DNA from: Ginglymostoma cirratum
Taxonomy: Eukaryota
Direction: 5' to 3'
DNA: 64,000 nucleotides
Assembly (NCBI GenBank): GCA_024137785.1
Contig: JAHRHZ010000092.1
Coordinates: forward strand, 625,770 to 689,769
Shown: piece by piece, positions 4,931 through 64,000 of the stretch
Numbering within the stretch: the first letter of the stretch is position 1
Layout: each line of letters opens with the position of its first letter
Program-made: the position numbers and the translations under genes
The notes under the pieces: generated by a model
What the model was told of the DNA's origin: nothing
Database searches by the model: none
Seen by the model: only the letters and a program-made list of their open reading frames with translations

Positions 4931-6489
4931 AAAGAACTGATAGATTAATAGGGGACTTCTAGAAAGTGTGCTGAGGCAGTATGTTACCCAGAACTAATAC
5001 CAAAACAAAAAAAAACAGTATAGTGGTTATTTATTTATTGCGGTTAGTGGGAGCTTGCACTACTGAAATTGGTCACCCGGCATATCAATCACTATACTTT
5101 GACGAACTCACACGGTGGTAAAGATATTTGGTGCTTTCTGAAGTCAGCAGTGATACTTTCGTGATGTAATTTGTAGTTTCTCCAAACATTTTCTCTGTTT
5201 CAATCTATAATTGACTAAAATGTGAATCTAACGGACGTACAATTTGACGGGAATACTCGCCTCTTCCGTGGCGCAGACACCTCCTCAGCTGTCGATGACA
5301 CCAGGGAACTCAGGCACATCCAGAAACACGCCGGTGTTGGCCTAAATATTGGCCATGCCATTACGTTACGGTATGACAAGAACCAAATCGGCCGTTAGGA
5401 ATATTGTTTCCAATTACACCTCCGAGACTTTTAAAACAGTCTGAACCACCAGCACGCTGTTTGATCTGGAAGTGAGAGATGCCCCTTTGTCTCACACTGA
5501 TGTGTACTTCTGTGCTCATTGTATCACATAATATTCGAAGCTCATTTTCTTTCGCCTTGGATGGATACAGGACGTTCAGAGTTGATTCTGTCCGTATGAA
5601 TGTACCAATGTTTCCAAACATGTTCACATTGTCTTAAACTCTGCCCTTTCCCCATAACTCAAGGTTTCAATTCGTGAATCTTTCTATTTCCCTTATCCTT
5701 GAATCTGTTTACTGCAACCACTGTGATCCTGCGTTCCAAAACGAGCAACTCGTAGCATTGAAAAGTAATTCATCATACTCCAGTGATTCCGTGACTAAAC
5801 ATCTTAACATACTAACAGCATTTTTAATGATTTTCAACGTCTCCATTACATCTGCCCGTAACATTATGTGCTGCCACGAGAAAAAAATGCCGGCTTCTCC
5901 AATCGCTCCACTTGAATGAAATTCCTCATCTCTGGTTACTGTACTAATCAACCTGCTCTCTACTTTTTCTTAGGATTTGTCATCTTTCCCAAAGCTTAGT
6001 TCCCACAACGCAACGCAACAATTCTGCTGCCGAAAATGGTAATTTCTAATGGCTCGGCGCAACTCTCCCGTTTTAATCTCTATTTCGTTTTGTATAAAAC
6101 CAAGGTTGCGTTTTTTAAAAAAAAGTCTCACCTTGTACTCACATCTGCAAAAACGTCAGTACATAGAAGGACAAAGGCAAAATACTAATGGAAACATCGC
6201 CAATCTGCTTTTCCAGTTACACGCTATCTATCCTGGAACTATGTCCGAGTTCCTAATGTCATTGCGTCACGAATACTGTAGCAGGAACGATGGGCGGAAA
6301 GGCCTAGTTCAGCTCTTATTTTCTATGTCAATACTTAACAGGTGTGGACGTTGCTGAGATGATCATAGAAGACACTTAGGGCATTCCCTTTAATGTCATT
6401 TTTAGCATATTTTATTGCAACAATATGCCATTAACAGCATATGACATATGACATGGATTTTATATGCTTATTTAAAACAGCACAAAAAA

Positions 6490-11781: not shown

Positions 11782-12078
11782 GTAAGTATTAGAGGCCGAA
11801 CTCACCTCTCGCAACAGCGAAATAGGAAATATCTTAATTATACCCAGTTGGGAGGATAATCAATACTACGTTTCAAAATAAATGGAATTGAATCAGTGCT
11901 GAGAGAGGAAACCAAGTGTTAATACGTAAGAGCGGAAAGGTAAATAAAACTAATCAGATCGCTCTCGGAAACCGCCGCCGCAGGAAAGATGGGCCGAATT
12001 ATCGCTCTGTCAATTGAAAAACTTCTTCCGAATGGTTGTCTTTACCTATAACTTTACCCTTCTCGAAATATATTCCAG

Positions 12079-12375
12079 GGATTCGGGCTGCGCCGACTGT
12101 AGTCCAGTCTGCAACAAGGGCCGCTATTCCACACGGAGAGCCTTTCACTTTGACCTGCAGTTTGGAGGGAGAGAGCATGGGCAGCTATACTATGCACTGG
12201 TACCGCCAACAGGGGACAACAATAGAGTGGCTGTGCAATGAATATAAAAACTGTGCATCGGGTTTAGACGACAGGTTCGAAGTGCAACACGTCTCTTCGA
12301 ATAACCGATTTACCCTGAAGCTGAGCAACACCCAGTTGGCAGACTCTGCGACCTACTACTGTGCAGCTAGTATGG
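12079..12375 (+). CDS. TRBV: V exon of inverted TCR V gene 1 (open frame)
   Basis: Acceptor TTCCAG| then (W)IRA-APTVVQS...LTCSLEGESMGSYTMHWYRQ...DSATYYCAAS, with the canonical Cys, Trp and DxAxYYC, followed by an RSS. TRBV is assigned from locus context, not sequence similarity. Confidence 0.9.
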
Positions 12376-12414
12376 CACAGAAACACAACCCGCTTATAGA
12401 CTAATACAAAAACC
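12376..12414 (+). other. 23-bp-spacer recombination signal sequence of V gene 1
   Basis: CACAGAA (12376-12382) + 23 nt + ACAAAAACC (12406-12414, perfect nonamer). Confidence 0.92.
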
Positions 12415-12944
12415 TTCCTGCTATCCCAGCACGTACCTAGCTCCACCTGTAACCAGTGCGGTCTAGGGAGTTCAGTAAACCCAAGAGAATGTTGATATTC
12501 GTACGGTTATATGCGAGATCCGAACATTACAATACACGTTGCAGCCAAACAAGGAGTTATTGCAGCACAAACAGAGGCCATTCCACCTATCTAGTCCGTG
12601 AAAGCTCTCTGTGGAGCAATCGTTCTATTCCTCGTTCTATGCATGAAGCTCCACAGACTCACTATGCATTAAGTTTCACGTTGTTATGACTCTCAGAGTG
12701 AAACCGTTCATCCCCGAATTCGGTCCGCATCTCTCAGGCAAAACTTTACATCAATATTCCATCATCTCTTCATCACGAGCTAATGGGAATAGTTTTTCTC
12801 AGTCATCCTTCTTTAAACCTGTTCTAACATTGTCCCTTATTTAAACCTGTCCTAACTTCGTCCACCTCTATCAAGCTTCCGCACGATCACTTTGCTCTAG
12901 GAACAAACCCAGATTTTTATGTTGCCTGATTTTCGGAATCATTT

Positions 12945-13020
12945 TGTGTTTGAATTTGTCTGATGCAGTTTTGTACCACTGTGCCGTATTTGCAGAGCAG
13001 AACTAGTCGCAGAGTCTGTC
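12945..13020 (-). pseudogene. Orphan V 3'-end fragment with 23-RSS, opposite in orientation to the two V genes
   Basis: Minus strand: ACA GAC TCT GCG AC- TAG TTC TGC TCT GCA AAT ACG G, then CACAGTG (12977-12983), a 23-nt spacer GTACAAAACTGCATCAGACAAAT, and TCAAACACA. Clearly homologous to the V2 end and spacer (GTACAAAACTGCAACAGACAGAT). Confidence 0.85.
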
Positions 13021-13603
13021 CTTTGCGCCTACTGATGATCCCTCTTATGTTTCCTAATGCGTGCTGACCAGAATTGGGCGAGTCTCCTCGTTGTGGCTGG
13101 AATAACTTTACAAAAGTTCAGGATTACTTCCCTTTTTTGAGCTCAGCACCTCTATATAAAATCATAAGTTCCAATCCGTAATTTTTCGCCGCCACGCCTT
13201 AGACGTTTAGGTAAAACCACAGGAAACACGGCAGGCAACATTTCTAGATCACTCCCACAAAATACCAATAGAACATGCAAATAATGTTTTCTTTGCAGAT
13301 CTCAGTTGAGAGCTAGACTTTGCTAAAACAGCATTCACAGCCAGGTTTGTTCTTCTGACTTCAGAGGTGGGTTTTTGTATAGTTCGGGATAGTGCAAAAT
13401 CCAATAGCAACAAATGAAATACTGCTCACTTGTTTGAGATATTGATCTGGCTATGTTCCAGTACACGATTGGTTGGTCCATCTTCAGGCGGAGTTTGTTC
13501 TCAACTCATGCATTTCCGCTCAGTGGGACATCTTGTCTTGATAACACTCATCTTAGTAACACATAGTCGTTCATCAGCTTTGGGTTGCTTCATGAGAAAA
13601 ACA

Positions 13604-13670
13604 ATGGGTGCCACATCTGGAATACGCTTATTCATCTTTCTCTCTTTATTATTCGTACGGTGGATCTACG
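13604..13670 (+). CDS. TRBV: Leader exon of inverted V gene 2
   Basis: MGATSGIRLFIFLSLLFVRWIY, with an in-frame alternative ATG at 13592. Phase-1 donor G|GTAAGT at 13671. Confidence 0.85.
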
Positions 13671-13949
13671 GTAAGTGTTGAACAGCGGAAAACTGTTTTG
13701 CAAACTGTAAAAACTGGAGAAAAAAGTCTATATACAAACTGAAGGTGATTCAGTCATAACTTTAAAGAGAATATTGGATAAATAATTGAAAGAGAAAATT
13801 GTAGAGCTGAATGAAAGATAGGGTACTGGGACTAAATAGATAGTTCTTTTAACTAGTTGACAGCTTCATGATGGGCACAATGATAGACTTTTATGCTAGA
13901 TTATTCTATTATTCGAACTCATTTATCTTTGTTTTTTTTTTCAATTTAG

Positions 13950-14246
13950 GAGTGAAGTCTGCACCTAAAGTGGCCCAGTTTCCTCCCGCGGCTGCGATTT
14001 CACTGGAACAGTCTCTCACTCTTGGCTGCAGTTTGGAGGGAGGGAGCATGAGCACCTACACCATGTTTTGGTATCGGCAAAAGGAACGCCTTTTCGAGTG
14101 GATATGCAGTGGGTATGGTGGCTGTGGAACCGATTTTGAGAAACGATTTACCGTTCAGCTCGAAGCTGGAAGCAATAAATTCAGCCTGCAGCTGAACAAC
14201 TCCGAAGAGACAGACTCTGCGACCTATTTTTGCGCTGCGAGTAAGG
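13950..14246 (+). CDS. TRBV: V exon of inverted TCR V gene 2 (open frame)
   Basis: Polypyrimidine tract + TTTAG| then (G)VKS-APKVAQF...LGCSLEGGSMSTYTMFWYRQ...DSATYFCAAS. Aligns to V1 without gaps (46/94 identical residues by manual count). Confidence 0.9.
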
Positions 14247-14285
14247 CACGCCGGTACAAAACTGCAACAGACAGATACAAAAACG
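14247..14285 (+). other. 23-bp-spacer recombination signal sequence of V gene 2
   Basis: CACGCCG (14247-14253; CAC intact, the rest divergent) + 23 nt + ACAAAAACG (14277-14285). Confidence 0.85.
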
Positions 14286-24824: not shown

Positions 24825-27800
24825 CCCTATGACGTAGGAGCAGAATAAGACCATTCGGCCCACCGAATCCGCTCCGCTACACAGTTAGATCATGGCTGCT
24901 CTGATAATCCTCACCTTCACTCTCCTGCCATAACCCTGGCTCTCTTACCGCTTAAAAATCTCTCTACCTCAGCCTTGAATATAGCTAAGGACTCAGCCTC
25001 GACAACCCTTTTCAGCTGGAAAATTATAGCTTCGTCACCCTCTTAGAAAGAAAACTCCACATATCCATCTTAAATGGGTGAGTCCTTACGCTAAGATTAT
25101 GCCCTCAGGTCCTAGACATTCACATAAGGAAAAACAGCCTCCGTGCATCTACCCTGTGCAGCGCCTAAGCATCTTATATGTTTCAATAAGGTATCTTCAT
25201 ATTCTTTATGTACATTCTTCTAAACTCCAATGGTCACAAAGCCAACCTACTCAATCTCTCCTCATACCTCCAAATCTAGATCAACCTAGTGAACATTCTC
25301 TGAACTGCTTCCAAAGCCAGCACATATTATCTTTGATAACAAGATGAGAATTTATTCACAATATTCCAATTGTGGTCTGATTTGTGCCACTATAATTTTC
25401 GTGAGGAATCCCCATTTCTACTTTGAAATAACAGTTAATATTCAATTTGACTTCCCAATTACCCAATGAACTTAGAGGCTAGCTTTTTGCGATCATCGAC
25501 TGTAAAATTCCTCTTTGCTGCAGATTTATCAAAACTTTTCTCCATTAAAAAGAACTATTCAGCTTTTCTACTCTTCCTGCCAAAGTGCTTAATCTCATAC
25601 TTTCCCACATTATATTCCATTAGTTAAGTTTCTGCCTATTCATTTAATCTGTCTATATCCCTCCACAAACTGCCTGTGTTATCCCCACTGCTTGCCTTTT
25701 CACCTGTTTTTGTGCCAGCAGCAAGTTTATATTTACTTCTGTGATCAAAGTCATTAATATATATTGCAAATAATTGTGGCACCAACACTGAGCCTCTGTG
25801 GTACTCCATGAGTTACAGATTGCTATTCTGAAAATACCCCACTATCCCAACTCTCTGTTTTCTACTGGTGAAGTGATCCGCTATCCAAGCTAATCATAGA
25901 ATCAGACAATAGAGAAGAGGTCCTTTGGCCCATTGAGTCAATAATGCTAAAAATACACGAAGTCTGCTCTGGTCCTCTTTTCCAGTGCTAGGCACATAGT
26001 TATAAATGTGATGACACTTCAGGCGCTTTTCCATGTACTTTTTAAAGGCTGTGAGTTGCCTGCTTCAACGACTCTCCAAGATAGTGCATTCAAGACCCAT
26101 ACAACCTCTGGGTTAAAAACAAAATGTGTTGCTCAAGTCCCCTCTAACCCTTCTGCCTTTCACCTTAAAAGTGTGCACCCTTGTTGTTGACTCTTAAACT
26201 GAGGGAAACAGCTACTTTCTATCCACCCTATTCATGCCCCTCATAATCAAATACACTTCCCCACTCAAACTTCTCTGCCCACAGAAAACAAGCCATGCTT
26301 ATTCAACCCCTTTTCATAGCTGAAATGTTCCAACTCAGGCAACATTCTGGTGAATCTACTCTGCACACCCTCCCCAGTGCAATCACATCTGTCCTAATAT
26401 GTGGTGACCAGAACTGAAAACAATAGTCCAGCTGTGGCCTAACCAAAGCCTTGTATAGCTCCAACTTAAATTCTCTGGTTTTAGAATCTATGCCTTGACT
26501 GATAGAGGCAAGTGTTGCCTAGGCCTTCTTAACTACCCTATTACGCTGGCCTGCCACCTTCGGGGATCTGAGGACAAGCACCCCAAGACCAAGAACACTC
26601 TGTTCCTCTGAGCTGTTTAGCGTCATGCCATTCATTGCATTCTCAATATTCCTTCTTCCAAAGTACATCACCTCACACATATCAGTGTTAAATTCCATTT
26701 GCCACCTATCTGCCCACTTGGTCAATCTGTCAGTACCCTCATATAGTCATGTCATAGAAATAGGCTTTTTGGTCTACCATGTCTGTGTCAATCAACAAAC
26801 TCCAAACTTCACTAATCCCTTTTACCTGCACTAGGCCATAGCCTACCAATCCCTAGCATTTTTGATGCTTAGGCAGGTGCTTCTTAAATGTTGTGAGCAT
26901 ACCTGCTCCTATCACCCTCTCAGGAAGAGTGTTCCATATTTCTAGTAACCTCTGAATGAAAAATAAACCTTTCCTCAGAACTCCTCAAAACCACTTACCC
27001 CTCACCAATGTATGCCTTCTGGTCTTAGATTCATCCATTACAGGGAGAATATTCTCACAATCCACCTTGTCTACATCTTACATAATGTTGTTTACCTCAA
27101 TCATATCCTGCCCTCTACCTCCTCTGTCCCAAGGCAAACAAACCGAATCTAGCCAGTCTGTTCTCTAACTAGACTTTCCAACCCAGGCAACACCATGGTG
27201 AATCTCATTTGCACCCTCTCCAGTGCAATCCATGTCCTTCCAACAGTGTGGTGACCAAAACTGCTCACAGTATTCCATCTGCTAAGAAAGTTGAAACAAA
27301 AGTTCTTTGCTTTTATGTTCTATACTTGTTAATGAAGATAAGCATCCAGTGTGTCTTCTTCACCACCCTGTTTCTCTGCACTGACACCTTCATGGATCTA
27401 AGGACTTGTACACCAAGGTCCCTTTGTTCCTCAGTATTCCCTGATTACCATTGTGTAGATACTTCCCTAATCAGATGTCCTAACATGCATCAACTCACAT
27501 TTATAGAGTCATGGAGTCACATAGCAAGGATACAGACCCTTCAGTCCAACTCATCAGCGTTGACCAGACATCACAATCTGACATTGTAGAATTTGTCAGC
27601 ATTTGGACCATATTTCCTCTAAACTATCCCTCTTCTTATTTATATACCCATCCAGATACCTCTTAAATGTTGTAATTGTGCCAGCCTCCAACACTTCCTC
27701 TGGCAGCTCATTCATGTACACACCACCCTCTGTGTGAAAATTTACCCCTCAGGTACCTTTCAAATCCTTCCCCTCTCACCTTCAACCTATGCCCTCTAGT

Positions 27801-52633: not shown

Positions 52634-52740
52634 CTTAGTTTTCCAAGCAAGAAATGACACAAACAATGCATACAAGATGCTTTTGCAGAACAGGATCAAA
52701 TACGTCAATTTTGCTGCTCCCATGCTTTGTAATTTTTCTT
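52634..52740 (-). CDS. TRBC: TCR beta constant exon 3 (connecting peptide + transmembrane)
   Basis: TTCACAG|...|GTAAGA, 107 nt, encoding EEKLQSMGAAKLTYLILFCKSILYALFVSFLAWKTK. It has the TCR-beta TM pattern Y-x5-K-x3-Y with an intramembrane Lys. Confidence 0.95.
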
Positions 52741-53948: not shown

Positions 53949-54219
53949 CTAAAAAGAAAAAAGACACACAAGCATTTAACATTATAATACTTTATGTATC
54001 AATTAAATAGATGTAGATAATCAAATTGTAAGTCCCAATGCCTTATCTAATCATTAAGTCTTTTAAGTTAGCCTTTAATTTGACATTTACCATGACAATT
54101 GTAACCCAGGCTATATTTTTCTTGAATTATCTATTGAGGTTTTTTAATTGAATGTCTGGAACTATATAAATTCTTTGTAACTCACAGAAGATGGTGATGA
54201 ATTTCACTCAAGGACCTAC

Positions 54220-54561
54220 CAATGCTGATGGTTACATTTGCACTGTGTATCTGTTCCTTTTTAGAAGTATAATGATTCACTTTGCACTCAATAGTTTGAG
54301 GCTCAACCAAATCAATGGCTTGCAATCTTAACCGACTGCTGATGCTGTAGGACTTATTCCCATCCACTGGCTTGGAATTGAGATCAGTCAGAATCTTTAC
54401 ATCATTGTCCAGCTGAGGCCTGTTATTAATGATCCAGGTGATCTTGATATTGTCTGGGTAGAAGTTAGATATTAGGCAAACCACAGTTGCCTTCCTCTTC
54501 TCATTAATCTCTTCTGGAGAGGGCAGAAACATAGTGATGGTAGGATCCTTAACAGCGCCTT
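54220..54561 (-). CDS. TRBC: TCR beta constant exon 1 (Ig C1 domain)
   Basis: CACAG|(E)GAVKDPTITMFLPSPEEINEKRKATVVCLISNFYPDNIKITW...SYSISSRLRL...IECKVNHY...SI G|GTAGGT. The PS.EEI..K.KAT.VCL...FYPD and SSRLR motifs are TRBC hallmarks. Confidence 0.95.
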
Positions 54562-61140: not shown

Positions 61141-62188
61141 CACAGTGCTACAGGATGATGTTAAAACGGTCAACTATTTAAAATACTGTCTTCAGAAAAG
61201 ATTCTCAAATGACAGACTTACATCCTATTAAACTTTAATTTAAAGATGGTCAGAAAATACATTACACCACATTTTGCATTTCATATAAGGTATTGAATTT
61301 CAATAAATAAGTGATGCTCCACAGCAGTCTTGACAGCCAACATTTAACAACCATACACTTACGCGTATGAAAATCTTAAAGAGTTAGTCAAACTAAATGG
61401 ATAGTGTGGTGCGGAAATTTAGGGGCTATTTTCCAGTATTGAGTATCTTAGCAGTTGAGAACATAGCCTCAAATGGTGGAGAACTCAAAATTGAGTAAAC
61501 TCAGCCTGAAGAGACAAAGAGGTGGGAATGGGGGGAATGAGGGAGATTGCAGAATTGGATTGTAGTTCAACTTCAAGAATTCTGGAGGAACATCATAACA
61601 TAGAGTTGAGGAAATACAAAATCTTCTACAGCAGGGAATGCCTGAGATGAAAAACTTAGCACTTAAAATAAAGCAGATAAAGAGAGGACATAGGAATAGA
61701 AGGGTAGGTTGATAAAGTGAGATAATAAAAAAAAATTATCAGAAGGATGTGCATCTCGAGGATTGTGTTCAGTTTGGTATGACATGTTTCACCAATTTCT
61801 GGACATGAATAATCCACAAGATCTATAATCCATCTTTGGGGAAGTGAGCAAACATCTTGAAACTTTCTTTTTAACAATGTTCTTAATGTCCCCAAAATAA
61901 TGGACTCCAGCATTCAACAGGGCAGATCGCCACCAACTTCTCAAGGACACGTAGCTCTGGGTGATAAATGTTAGCTTTTCCAGAGGTCCTTGCAACAGGC
62001 AAACAATCAAAAATGTTCTTTCCATTATTCATATTGAAGTCACACATTAATATTTTCAATGAATTTTAAAATGGATATTGCCCACCAGAAATATTTGTCT
62101 TAGAAAAGTTGCAGAATGCTGAACTTCCAATCCCTTTATGTATTTGAAAAACAAAAATCATAGTCACATTTTTTAACTTTCAACTCAC

Positions 62189-63221: not shown

Positions 63222-64000
63222 CACAGTGTGAGACCCTTTTCAGAAAACATCACAAGACAAAGTGTTTTTTTAAACCAGTCTTGCAATTGGCCACTGTTGA
63301 CTTGGATGATTGTTTATTTCATCTCATTAATTTTAATCCAATGCCACATTAAAAAGGTAATAATTATAAAGCAGAAAAGGAGACCTATAAGTCAATAAAA
63401 CTTCTAAAGACACAATCAACTAATTTCACTCACCTCTCTTCTTTCTGCATAGCCTTGTAAATATTTTTCAATAAATCATTTTTATATCCAGTTTCCATTA
63501 AGCAAGCTTCCACCACAACACATTCCATATCAATTCAATGTCCTCCATGAGAAATGACTCTGCTAGGTCTTTTACCAATTAGCGCAAAATCAGTATCATT
63601 GGTCACCGGCCATTCTGCCACAGTAAGCTTTCTGATTGTTTACGCAAGATCTTAATTAGTTTTGAAAATGTTGATTAAACCCCCAGTTGTCCCTTACTGA
63701 TCTGTAGAGAATTATAGCAAATTTCAGGTCCACACAGTTGTCTCATGTCTGGTACCATTTTAGTAAATCATTACTGTTCCATATCCAAGGCTTGAAAAAC
63801 AATCTAATGCATTTTGTTCAAAAGTGAACACATTTCATCAGCTGTGACCCAACCACTGATTCCTAAAAGTTGATCAAAATTTATTTTCTTAACTCATCTT
63901 AAATCCTCAATGAGTGACTTTCTGCACCCTCAATTCTTCCTTCCAAATATTTTGAGTATTTACTAACATCATTGTCCCTCCATCCCAGTCCCACGTTCTC

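Follow-up and report, generated by a model that had tools for sequence, protein, structure and literature searches.

The 76 nt at 12945 to 13020 (−) are an inverted copy of the 3′ end of the V gene V2 and its 23-RSS (14209 to 14284), lying within a TCR-beta locus. Positions are those of the window, the whole stretch of 64,000 nt that was analyzed, and are called extended where they continue beyond it along the same contig. We consider it quite probable that this sequence (here, the stub) is a V2 copy lodged in a CR1 relic, likely produced by germline template switching, that has likely drifted neutrally since and is subject at most to rare, purposeless RAG cutting. The copy is real, but likely an ordinary relic. 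As such its importance is minor, but it illustrates the gain of an orphan RSS through short templated copying and provides an old marker common to two species.

Structure of the stub and its kinship to V2

Read on the minus strand, the stub consists of 37 nt copied from the 3′ end of the V2 exon (12984 to 13020), a heptamer, CACAGTG, equal to the consensus (12977 to 12983), a 23-nt spacer (12954 to 12976), and a degenerate nonamer (12945 to 12953) with three mismatches, among them C at position 6 of the A-tract and A at position 9. This is the layout given in the preliminary description of this DNA, which had also noted a frameshift and a stop in the coding part; these proved to be the loss of 1 nt and an in-frame stop at the place of a Tyr codon. 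Within the 64-kb window, the stub aligned to the donor stretch (14209 to 14284, +) over 76 columns with 81.6% identity (E = 3e-14). Agreement with V2 was 21/23 in the spacer (12/23 with V1), 4/7 in the heptamer, and 6/9 in the nonamer, and the RSS and coding parts are equidistant from V2 (31/39 and 31/38). When the 4.36-Gb genome of the same organism was searched with a 161-base DNA query, two places matched, the stub and V2, so that the only other genomic match of the stub is 14209 to 14284, a nearby template. The stub is a copy of V2, not a chance resemblance.

Compared with the consensus, the heptamer has no mismatches in the stub, two in V1, and three in V2, and the stub heptamer is therefore the nearest to consensus of the three, as had been noted. 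The copy ends, on its 3′ side, within a base of the end of the nonamer. Upstream of the 37 coding nt no V sequence was detectable (best local score, 32; shuffle mean, 30), and a search beside the stub for remnants of a leader, promoter, or framework regions 1 to 3 gave no match above shuffles.

A mirror-image TCR-beta locus

The map covers the window, a further 100 kb and 200 kb to its right, and 100 kb to its left, with window coordinates extended along contig C92. On this contig, from about 570,000 to 978,000 (window −55,700 to 352,000 extended), we found a mirror-image TCR-beta locus with two D-J-C clusters facing apart. Cluster 1 comprises the C-beta 1 (C1) Ig-domain exon (54200 to 54550, −) with a transmembrane exon near 52700, J segments (~61100 to 69200, −), and D1 (extended 69692 to 69705, −), which carries a 12- and a 23-signal, with its 5′ 12-RSS at extended 69706 (+). 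The mirror cluster has D2 at extended 194910 to 194921 (+), J segments to about 203300, and C2 at extended 214172 (+), which is 50% identical to C1. Judged from sequence, the C and transmembrane exons of C2 are open, and they share a contig with C1. A third D-J-C cluster occupies 807,000 to 826,000 of contig C150 (L043 to L046), with one D, five J segments by motif, and a C that is 49% identical to C1. That contig also holds a stop-bearing C-like exon on the other strand (854,116 to 854,412) and a V at 714,608.

Across the 464 kb we counted 35 V hits: 13 lie left of C1, the space between the clusters contains 8 that point in both senses, and a further 14 lie right of C2. The two outer arrays face inwards (12/13 hits on the left and 14/14 on the right), and their outer ends lie beyond the mapped span. 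The stub lies between two genes of the left array, V1 (exon and 23-RSS, 12069 to 12414, +; RSS at 12376 to 12414) and V2 (open-frame exon, 13949 to 14246, +; 23-RSS at 14247 to 14285), which share 48% protein identity. The V2 leader intron (13670 to 13948) is spliced in a contig of run X1, which was taken as RNA by guess. A third member of the V1/V2 family (L022, extended 260,960 to 261,180, −) lies in the mirror arm; its 5′ exon is deleted, it has a stop and a decayed RSS, and it has a promoter-like stretch in common with V1. The preliminary description had made the stub itself the third family member. Kinship of a partial kind is there, in the form of a 76-nt copy inside CR1, but the real third member is this mirror-arm pseudogene, 248 kb away.

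Assignment to TCR-beta is based on D segments with 12/23 signals, on the J and C layout, and on the D-beta motif. Searches of the PDB returned generic Ig/TCR domains only, with TCR beta chains among many hits to the C domain, and a search of a protein database for homologues of the V2 protein gave no candidate.

Several minor features of the locus were recorded. In both V1 and V2 (12069 to 12375 and 13949 to 14246), the CDR2 region has a pair of additional cysteines separated by six residues. Left of V1 lie two more stop-bearing V pseudogenes (5259 to 5516, +, and extended −1842 to −1567, +), and one of the 13 hits in the left array is a wrong-way V fragment. The cluster 1 J array includes a J-like segment on the opposite strand (extended 68,316, +) and, at 63222, a J whose FGXG motif contains a stop.

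Origin of the stub in a CR1 relic

The stub interrupts an old CR1-like relic. Based on nhmmer searches with a profile built from 21 local CR1-like copies, the left part of the relic spans 12668 to 12915 (−; profile positions 174 to 397; E = 5.6e-4) and the right part spans 13047 to 13161 (−; profile positions 482 to 602; E = 1.9e-5). Each match is weak singly; the two are colinear and run in one direction, with the stub inside the 131-nt gap between them. The earlier phrase “embedded in CR1 debris” is accurate in that there is debris on both sides, but the pieces are those of one colinear element interrupted by the stub.

Immediately beside the stub, 29 nt at 12916 to 12944 (+) form a CR1 piece that is inverted with respect to the remaining relic and ends at profile position 442. 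In an orientation test of the stub flanks with a profile from 114 local hits and 200 shuffles, this piece, when reversed, matched the missing part of CR1 with a score of 17.0, reached by 0/200 shuffles, versus 9.5 in the other orientation, reached by 89/200; a weaker earlier test with poorly anchored copies had given 23/300. The local inversion that had been proposed from the sequence is thus supported by an inverted CR1 piece adjoining the stub. The stub itself did not match the CR1 profile in either orientation (156/200 and 27/200 shuffles). On its other side, the 26 nt at 13021 to 13046 gave no clear match to CR1 forward (149/200) and a doubtful one in reverse (2/200, one of six such tests). 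Removal of the stub in silico left the two CR1 hits unmerged, and the junctions appeared by eye too decayed for microhomology to be read.

Based on its position inside a colinear CR1 element and beside an inverted piece of that element, the stub is likely a templated insertion and not a V gene that decayed in place. The simplest history that we infer is a single repair event, involving three template switches, by which the stub entered a preexisting CR1 relic. Synthesis would have proceeded along CR1 to about profile position 397, switched strands, and copied ~29 nt of the same CR1 backwards; it would then have jumped 1.3 kb and copied V2 backwards, starting at the end of the nonamer, before returning to CR1. 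An insertion followed by a 105-nt micro-inversion would yield an equal product and fits too. The end of the copy within a base of the nonamer end is not predicted by a random switch. Among people, complex templated insertions are frequent as germline variants (PMC8421209), and the stub resembles these MMBIR-type events in being a short reverse copy of nearby templates with more than one switch. It differs from them in its age, in the unreadable microhomology at its junctions, and in that a two-step history fits it equally well.

The perfect heptamer may be the family's old state, kept in the stub, or may have arisen by one CpG transition, and the heptamer of V2 itself would have drifted. A comparison of V1, V2, the stub, and the mirror-arm pseudogene suggests that the old heptamer of the family was plausibly one CpG transition from the consensus, a form that occurs at other V genes of the locus.

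The best surviving alternative, though an unlikely one, is that the stub remains from a complete third V gene, inverted where it stood, whose 5′ part was later lost. V1 and V2 are tandem paralogues, the left array contains the other wrong-way V fragment, and the family has a deleted pseudogene in the mirror arm, all of which would suit such a history. Against it, no trace of a leader, a promoter, or a framework region was found next to the stub, and a later CR1 insertion could not yield the single colinear CR1 that runs across it. Two other origins were rejected. The stub could have been split from a V2-like pseudogene in the mirror arm (extended 260992 to 261096) that appeared to end where the stub begins, but a decayed 3′ end and RSS belonging to that pseudogene itself were found. 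RAG transposition does not agree with the sequence, in which the coding flank is still joined to the heptamer and so no cut was made at the signal end.

Quality of the orphan signal

We scored signals with a matrix specific to this locus that covers the heptamer and nonamer and ignores the spacer, trained on the RSSs of 17 of the 35 V hits plus the 23-signals of the two D segments (n = 19). The 18 hits left out of training were stop-bearing copies, fragments, and three open V exons (two with odd spacers and one with a non-CAC heptamer). With 13.9 bits, the stub RSS fell below all 19 leave-one-out scores, which ranged from 14.5 (V2) to 29.0, and by this heptamer-plus-nonamer matrix it is not a strong canonical RSS. 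Its place as the lowest holds for the 19 RSSs used, since the three excluded open exons would score under it. Neither C at nonamer position 6 nor A at position 9 occurs among the 19 training RSSs. According to a single-molecule study of a 12-RSS with mouse RAG, a broken A-run in the nonamer lowers synapsis and paired-complex formation in vitro (PMC7337519).

Taken purely as RSS-like letters, the stub is modest, since sites with its score are expected by chance at 0.33 per simulated 64 kb (30 simulations). Scanning the 464 kb, we found 28 sites of at least 13.9 bits, of which one besides the stub has a geometry that would delete C1. This chance 23-RSS-like site at 25705 to 25743 (−), used here as a control, scores 16.7 bits compared with 13.9 for the stub; it has an intact A-tract, lies beside CR1 debris, and has no V sequence upstream. 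On the far side of the locus, the 150 kb 3′ of C2 (~30 kb of them N) contained no 23-RSS-like site of stub-level score and matching geometry. Separately, a V pseudogene at extended 248,971 to 249,114 (−), deleted from CDR1 to the signal, retains a near-perfect 23-RSS of 28.0 bits. This noncoding signal is stronger than that of the stub, and its joining to D1 would delete cluster 2.

Conservation in a second species

Runs X12 and X14 of a second species (organism B) each contain the stretch in one contig. Between 12885 and 13190, the two runs were identical to each other and differed from the window at 24 positions, 21 of them listed, with no gaps. Changes numbered 2/39 in the RSS (nonamer position 1 and spacer position 2), 3/37 in the coding stub, and 19/230 in the flanks, the flank count taking the 3 unlisted differences as lying at the ends of the interval. 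For this one species pair, at low power, neither the difference between RSS and flanks nor that between RSS and coding stub was significant (Fisher p = 0.75 and 0.67). The point estimate of the RSS change rate, 5%, is below the 8% of the flanks; against a background of 8%, 16 bases could all be conserved without the result reaching significance. The stub RSS shows no sign of excess conservation, and constraint on its 16 bases is compatible with so weak a test. By the same kind of comparison, the V1 exon was constrained relative to its flank (15/292 versus 17/142, p = 0.017, among 40 of 213 difference rows).

The heptamer is unchanged in organism B, although the chance of 0/7 changes at the flank rate is 0.55. 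At the site of the stub's stop in this genome, organism B reads Tyr. Its nonamer has the consensus base at position 1, which would raise the stub to 16.8 bits, the low end of real V RSSs. The other two nonamer mismatches are common to both genomes, and the break in the A-tract is therefore old. In the same species, read depth dips within 14187 to 14267 of the window by the equivalent of about 7 missing bases, where the V2 end or its RSS may be damaged.

Deleting geometry and possible use

The preliminary description had proposed that the orphan signal might serve as a C-beta deleting element, with a 12-RSS in cluster 1, that of the C-proximal J (61141 to 61168, +; nonamer with 4 mismatches), as partner. 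The geometry behind this proposal is correct. The stub signal faces away from C1, the 12-signals of the cluster 1 D and J segments face the opposite way, and C1 lies between, so that the stub heptamer at 12983 (−) is in position for deletion of C together with either the J 12-RSS at 61141 (+) or the 5′ 12-RSS of D1 at extended 69706 (+). Such a join is predicted to retain the signal joint in the chromosome and to excise a circle carrying V2 and C1, of 48.2 kb with the J at 61141 or of 56.7 kb with D1. In a study of mouse TCR-beta, cryptic and pseudogene sites carried D in ~70% of joints, like functional V genes (bioRxiv 10.64898/2026.09.01.748595), which makes the D1 5′ 12-RSS the likelier partner of the two.

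The function itself found no support, and we judge it very improbable that the stub is a selected element whose 23-RSS joins the D or an unused J of cluster 1 to remove C1 and close one beta cluster per cell. In favor of such selection, the geometry would be kept after inversional joining of a V to DJ1, because on the map the stub and C1 invert together. The heptamer is perfect in two species, the copy stops at the end of the nonamer, X1 contigs cover the stretch, and isotype exclusion would be of use where there are several D-J-C clusters. These points are offset by the lack of excess conservation in the low-power comparison, by an A-tract broken in both species, with one more nonamer change off consensus in this genome, by a chance site that scores better than the stub, and by the empty search for a counterpart in the 150 kb 3′ of C2 (~30 kb of them N). 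Moreover, inversion can bring V1 and V2 to D1 and deletion can bring them to D2, and ordinary deletion joining a left-array V to D2 would already remove C1. If RAG used the stub, a circle would take V2 and C1 away and leave clusters 2 and 3 in place; given the mirror cluster and the third cluster on C150, loss of C1 would not silence TCR-beta.

The stub has been likened to the kappa-deleting element. According to two reports, mouse RS is a canonical 23-signal whose heptamer and nonamer are placed 5′; it lies 25 kb 3′ of C-kappa, joins like a J, and is shown to be used in vivo, its use silencing the locus (PMC2118853; bioRxiv 10.64898/2026.04.12.717890). What stands of the resemblance to mouse RS and the human kappa-deleting element is position: in each case a signal with a 23-nt spacer lies 3′ of the constant exon, and use would delete C. 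Orientation, RSS strength, and locus silencing differ. The stub's signal points away from C and not toward it as in the J-like orientation, the signal joint would be retained on the chromosome, the nonamer is poor, and other C genes would be left.

In T cells, the TCR-delta constant region is deleted by the noncoding RSS elements deltaRec and psi-J-alpha, a dedicated pair that flanks the whole delta locus and leaves its signal joint on the circle. Unlike these, the stub is a lone relic without a dedicated partner. It would act as a deleting element only if used, and it is not a member of that class.

A variant that we rate equally improbable is a deleting element of a new geometry, in which an accidental copy was kept because, after a failed or self-reactive cluster 1 rearrangement, it would excise C1 as a circle, leave its signal joint in the chromosome, and pass the cell to the mirror cluster, which would enforce a single beta chain despite three beta clusters in the genome. 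Should joints be found, the stub would count as a TCR-beta editing element, with relevance to the maintenance of one chain per cell in animals with several beta clusters.

Rare, functionless RAG cutting at the stub is nonetheless plausible by analogy with mouse. Contigs of run X1, from the same organism, cover the stub continuously from V1 to the V2 leader, although a contig is not a single transcript, and this coverage suggests that the stub stretch may be open to RAG. The raw RNA runs X16 and X17 gave 0 reads over 12885 to 13190, which counts neither for nor against use. The stub resembles pseudogene and cryptic RSSs of mouse TCR-beta, which are nonfunctional, lie in an open locus, and are rarely used by RAG. 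In that work, the frequency at which cryptic sites rearranged in thymocytes ranged from <1 to about 1,365 per million cells, with most joins made through D, and likeness to an RSS was no reliable predictor of use (bioRxiv 10.64898/2026.09.01.748595). Those assays scored coding joints of forward-oriented sites, whereas the stub faces the other way.

Still less probable is a role through pairing, in which the inverted copy would anneal with the V2 end in read-through RNA or single-stranded DNA and so tune the use of V2. A long duplex is predicted between the stub and V2 arms (−99.7 kcal/mol, a value with no shuffle control), and X1 contigs lie on both sides; any inverted repeat of 82% identity would give a comparable duplex, conservation does not exceed that of the flanks, and the contigs do not demonstrate one transcript. 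An assembly artefact has virtually no likelihood, being refuted by single contigs that span the stub and its flanks in organism B (X12 and X14) and in the same organism (X1).

Comparison of the locus with other TRB loci

To a specialist, the locus map, with its mirror clusters, outer inward-facing V arrays, and third cluster, is probably more useful than the stub. In the literature searched, which omits most subscription journals, we found no description of a shark TRB genomic map of the mirror type. A study of salmonid and pike TRB describes a similar core of two head-to-head D-J-C clusters facing apart with V genes between them (PMC10464911). The amniote TRBV genes known to be 3′ inverted (PMC11754216) resemble V1 and V2 in lying 3′ of C in the opposite sense. 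The locus described here differs from both the salmonid/pike and the amniote arrangement in the long, inward-facing V arrays outside both C genes.
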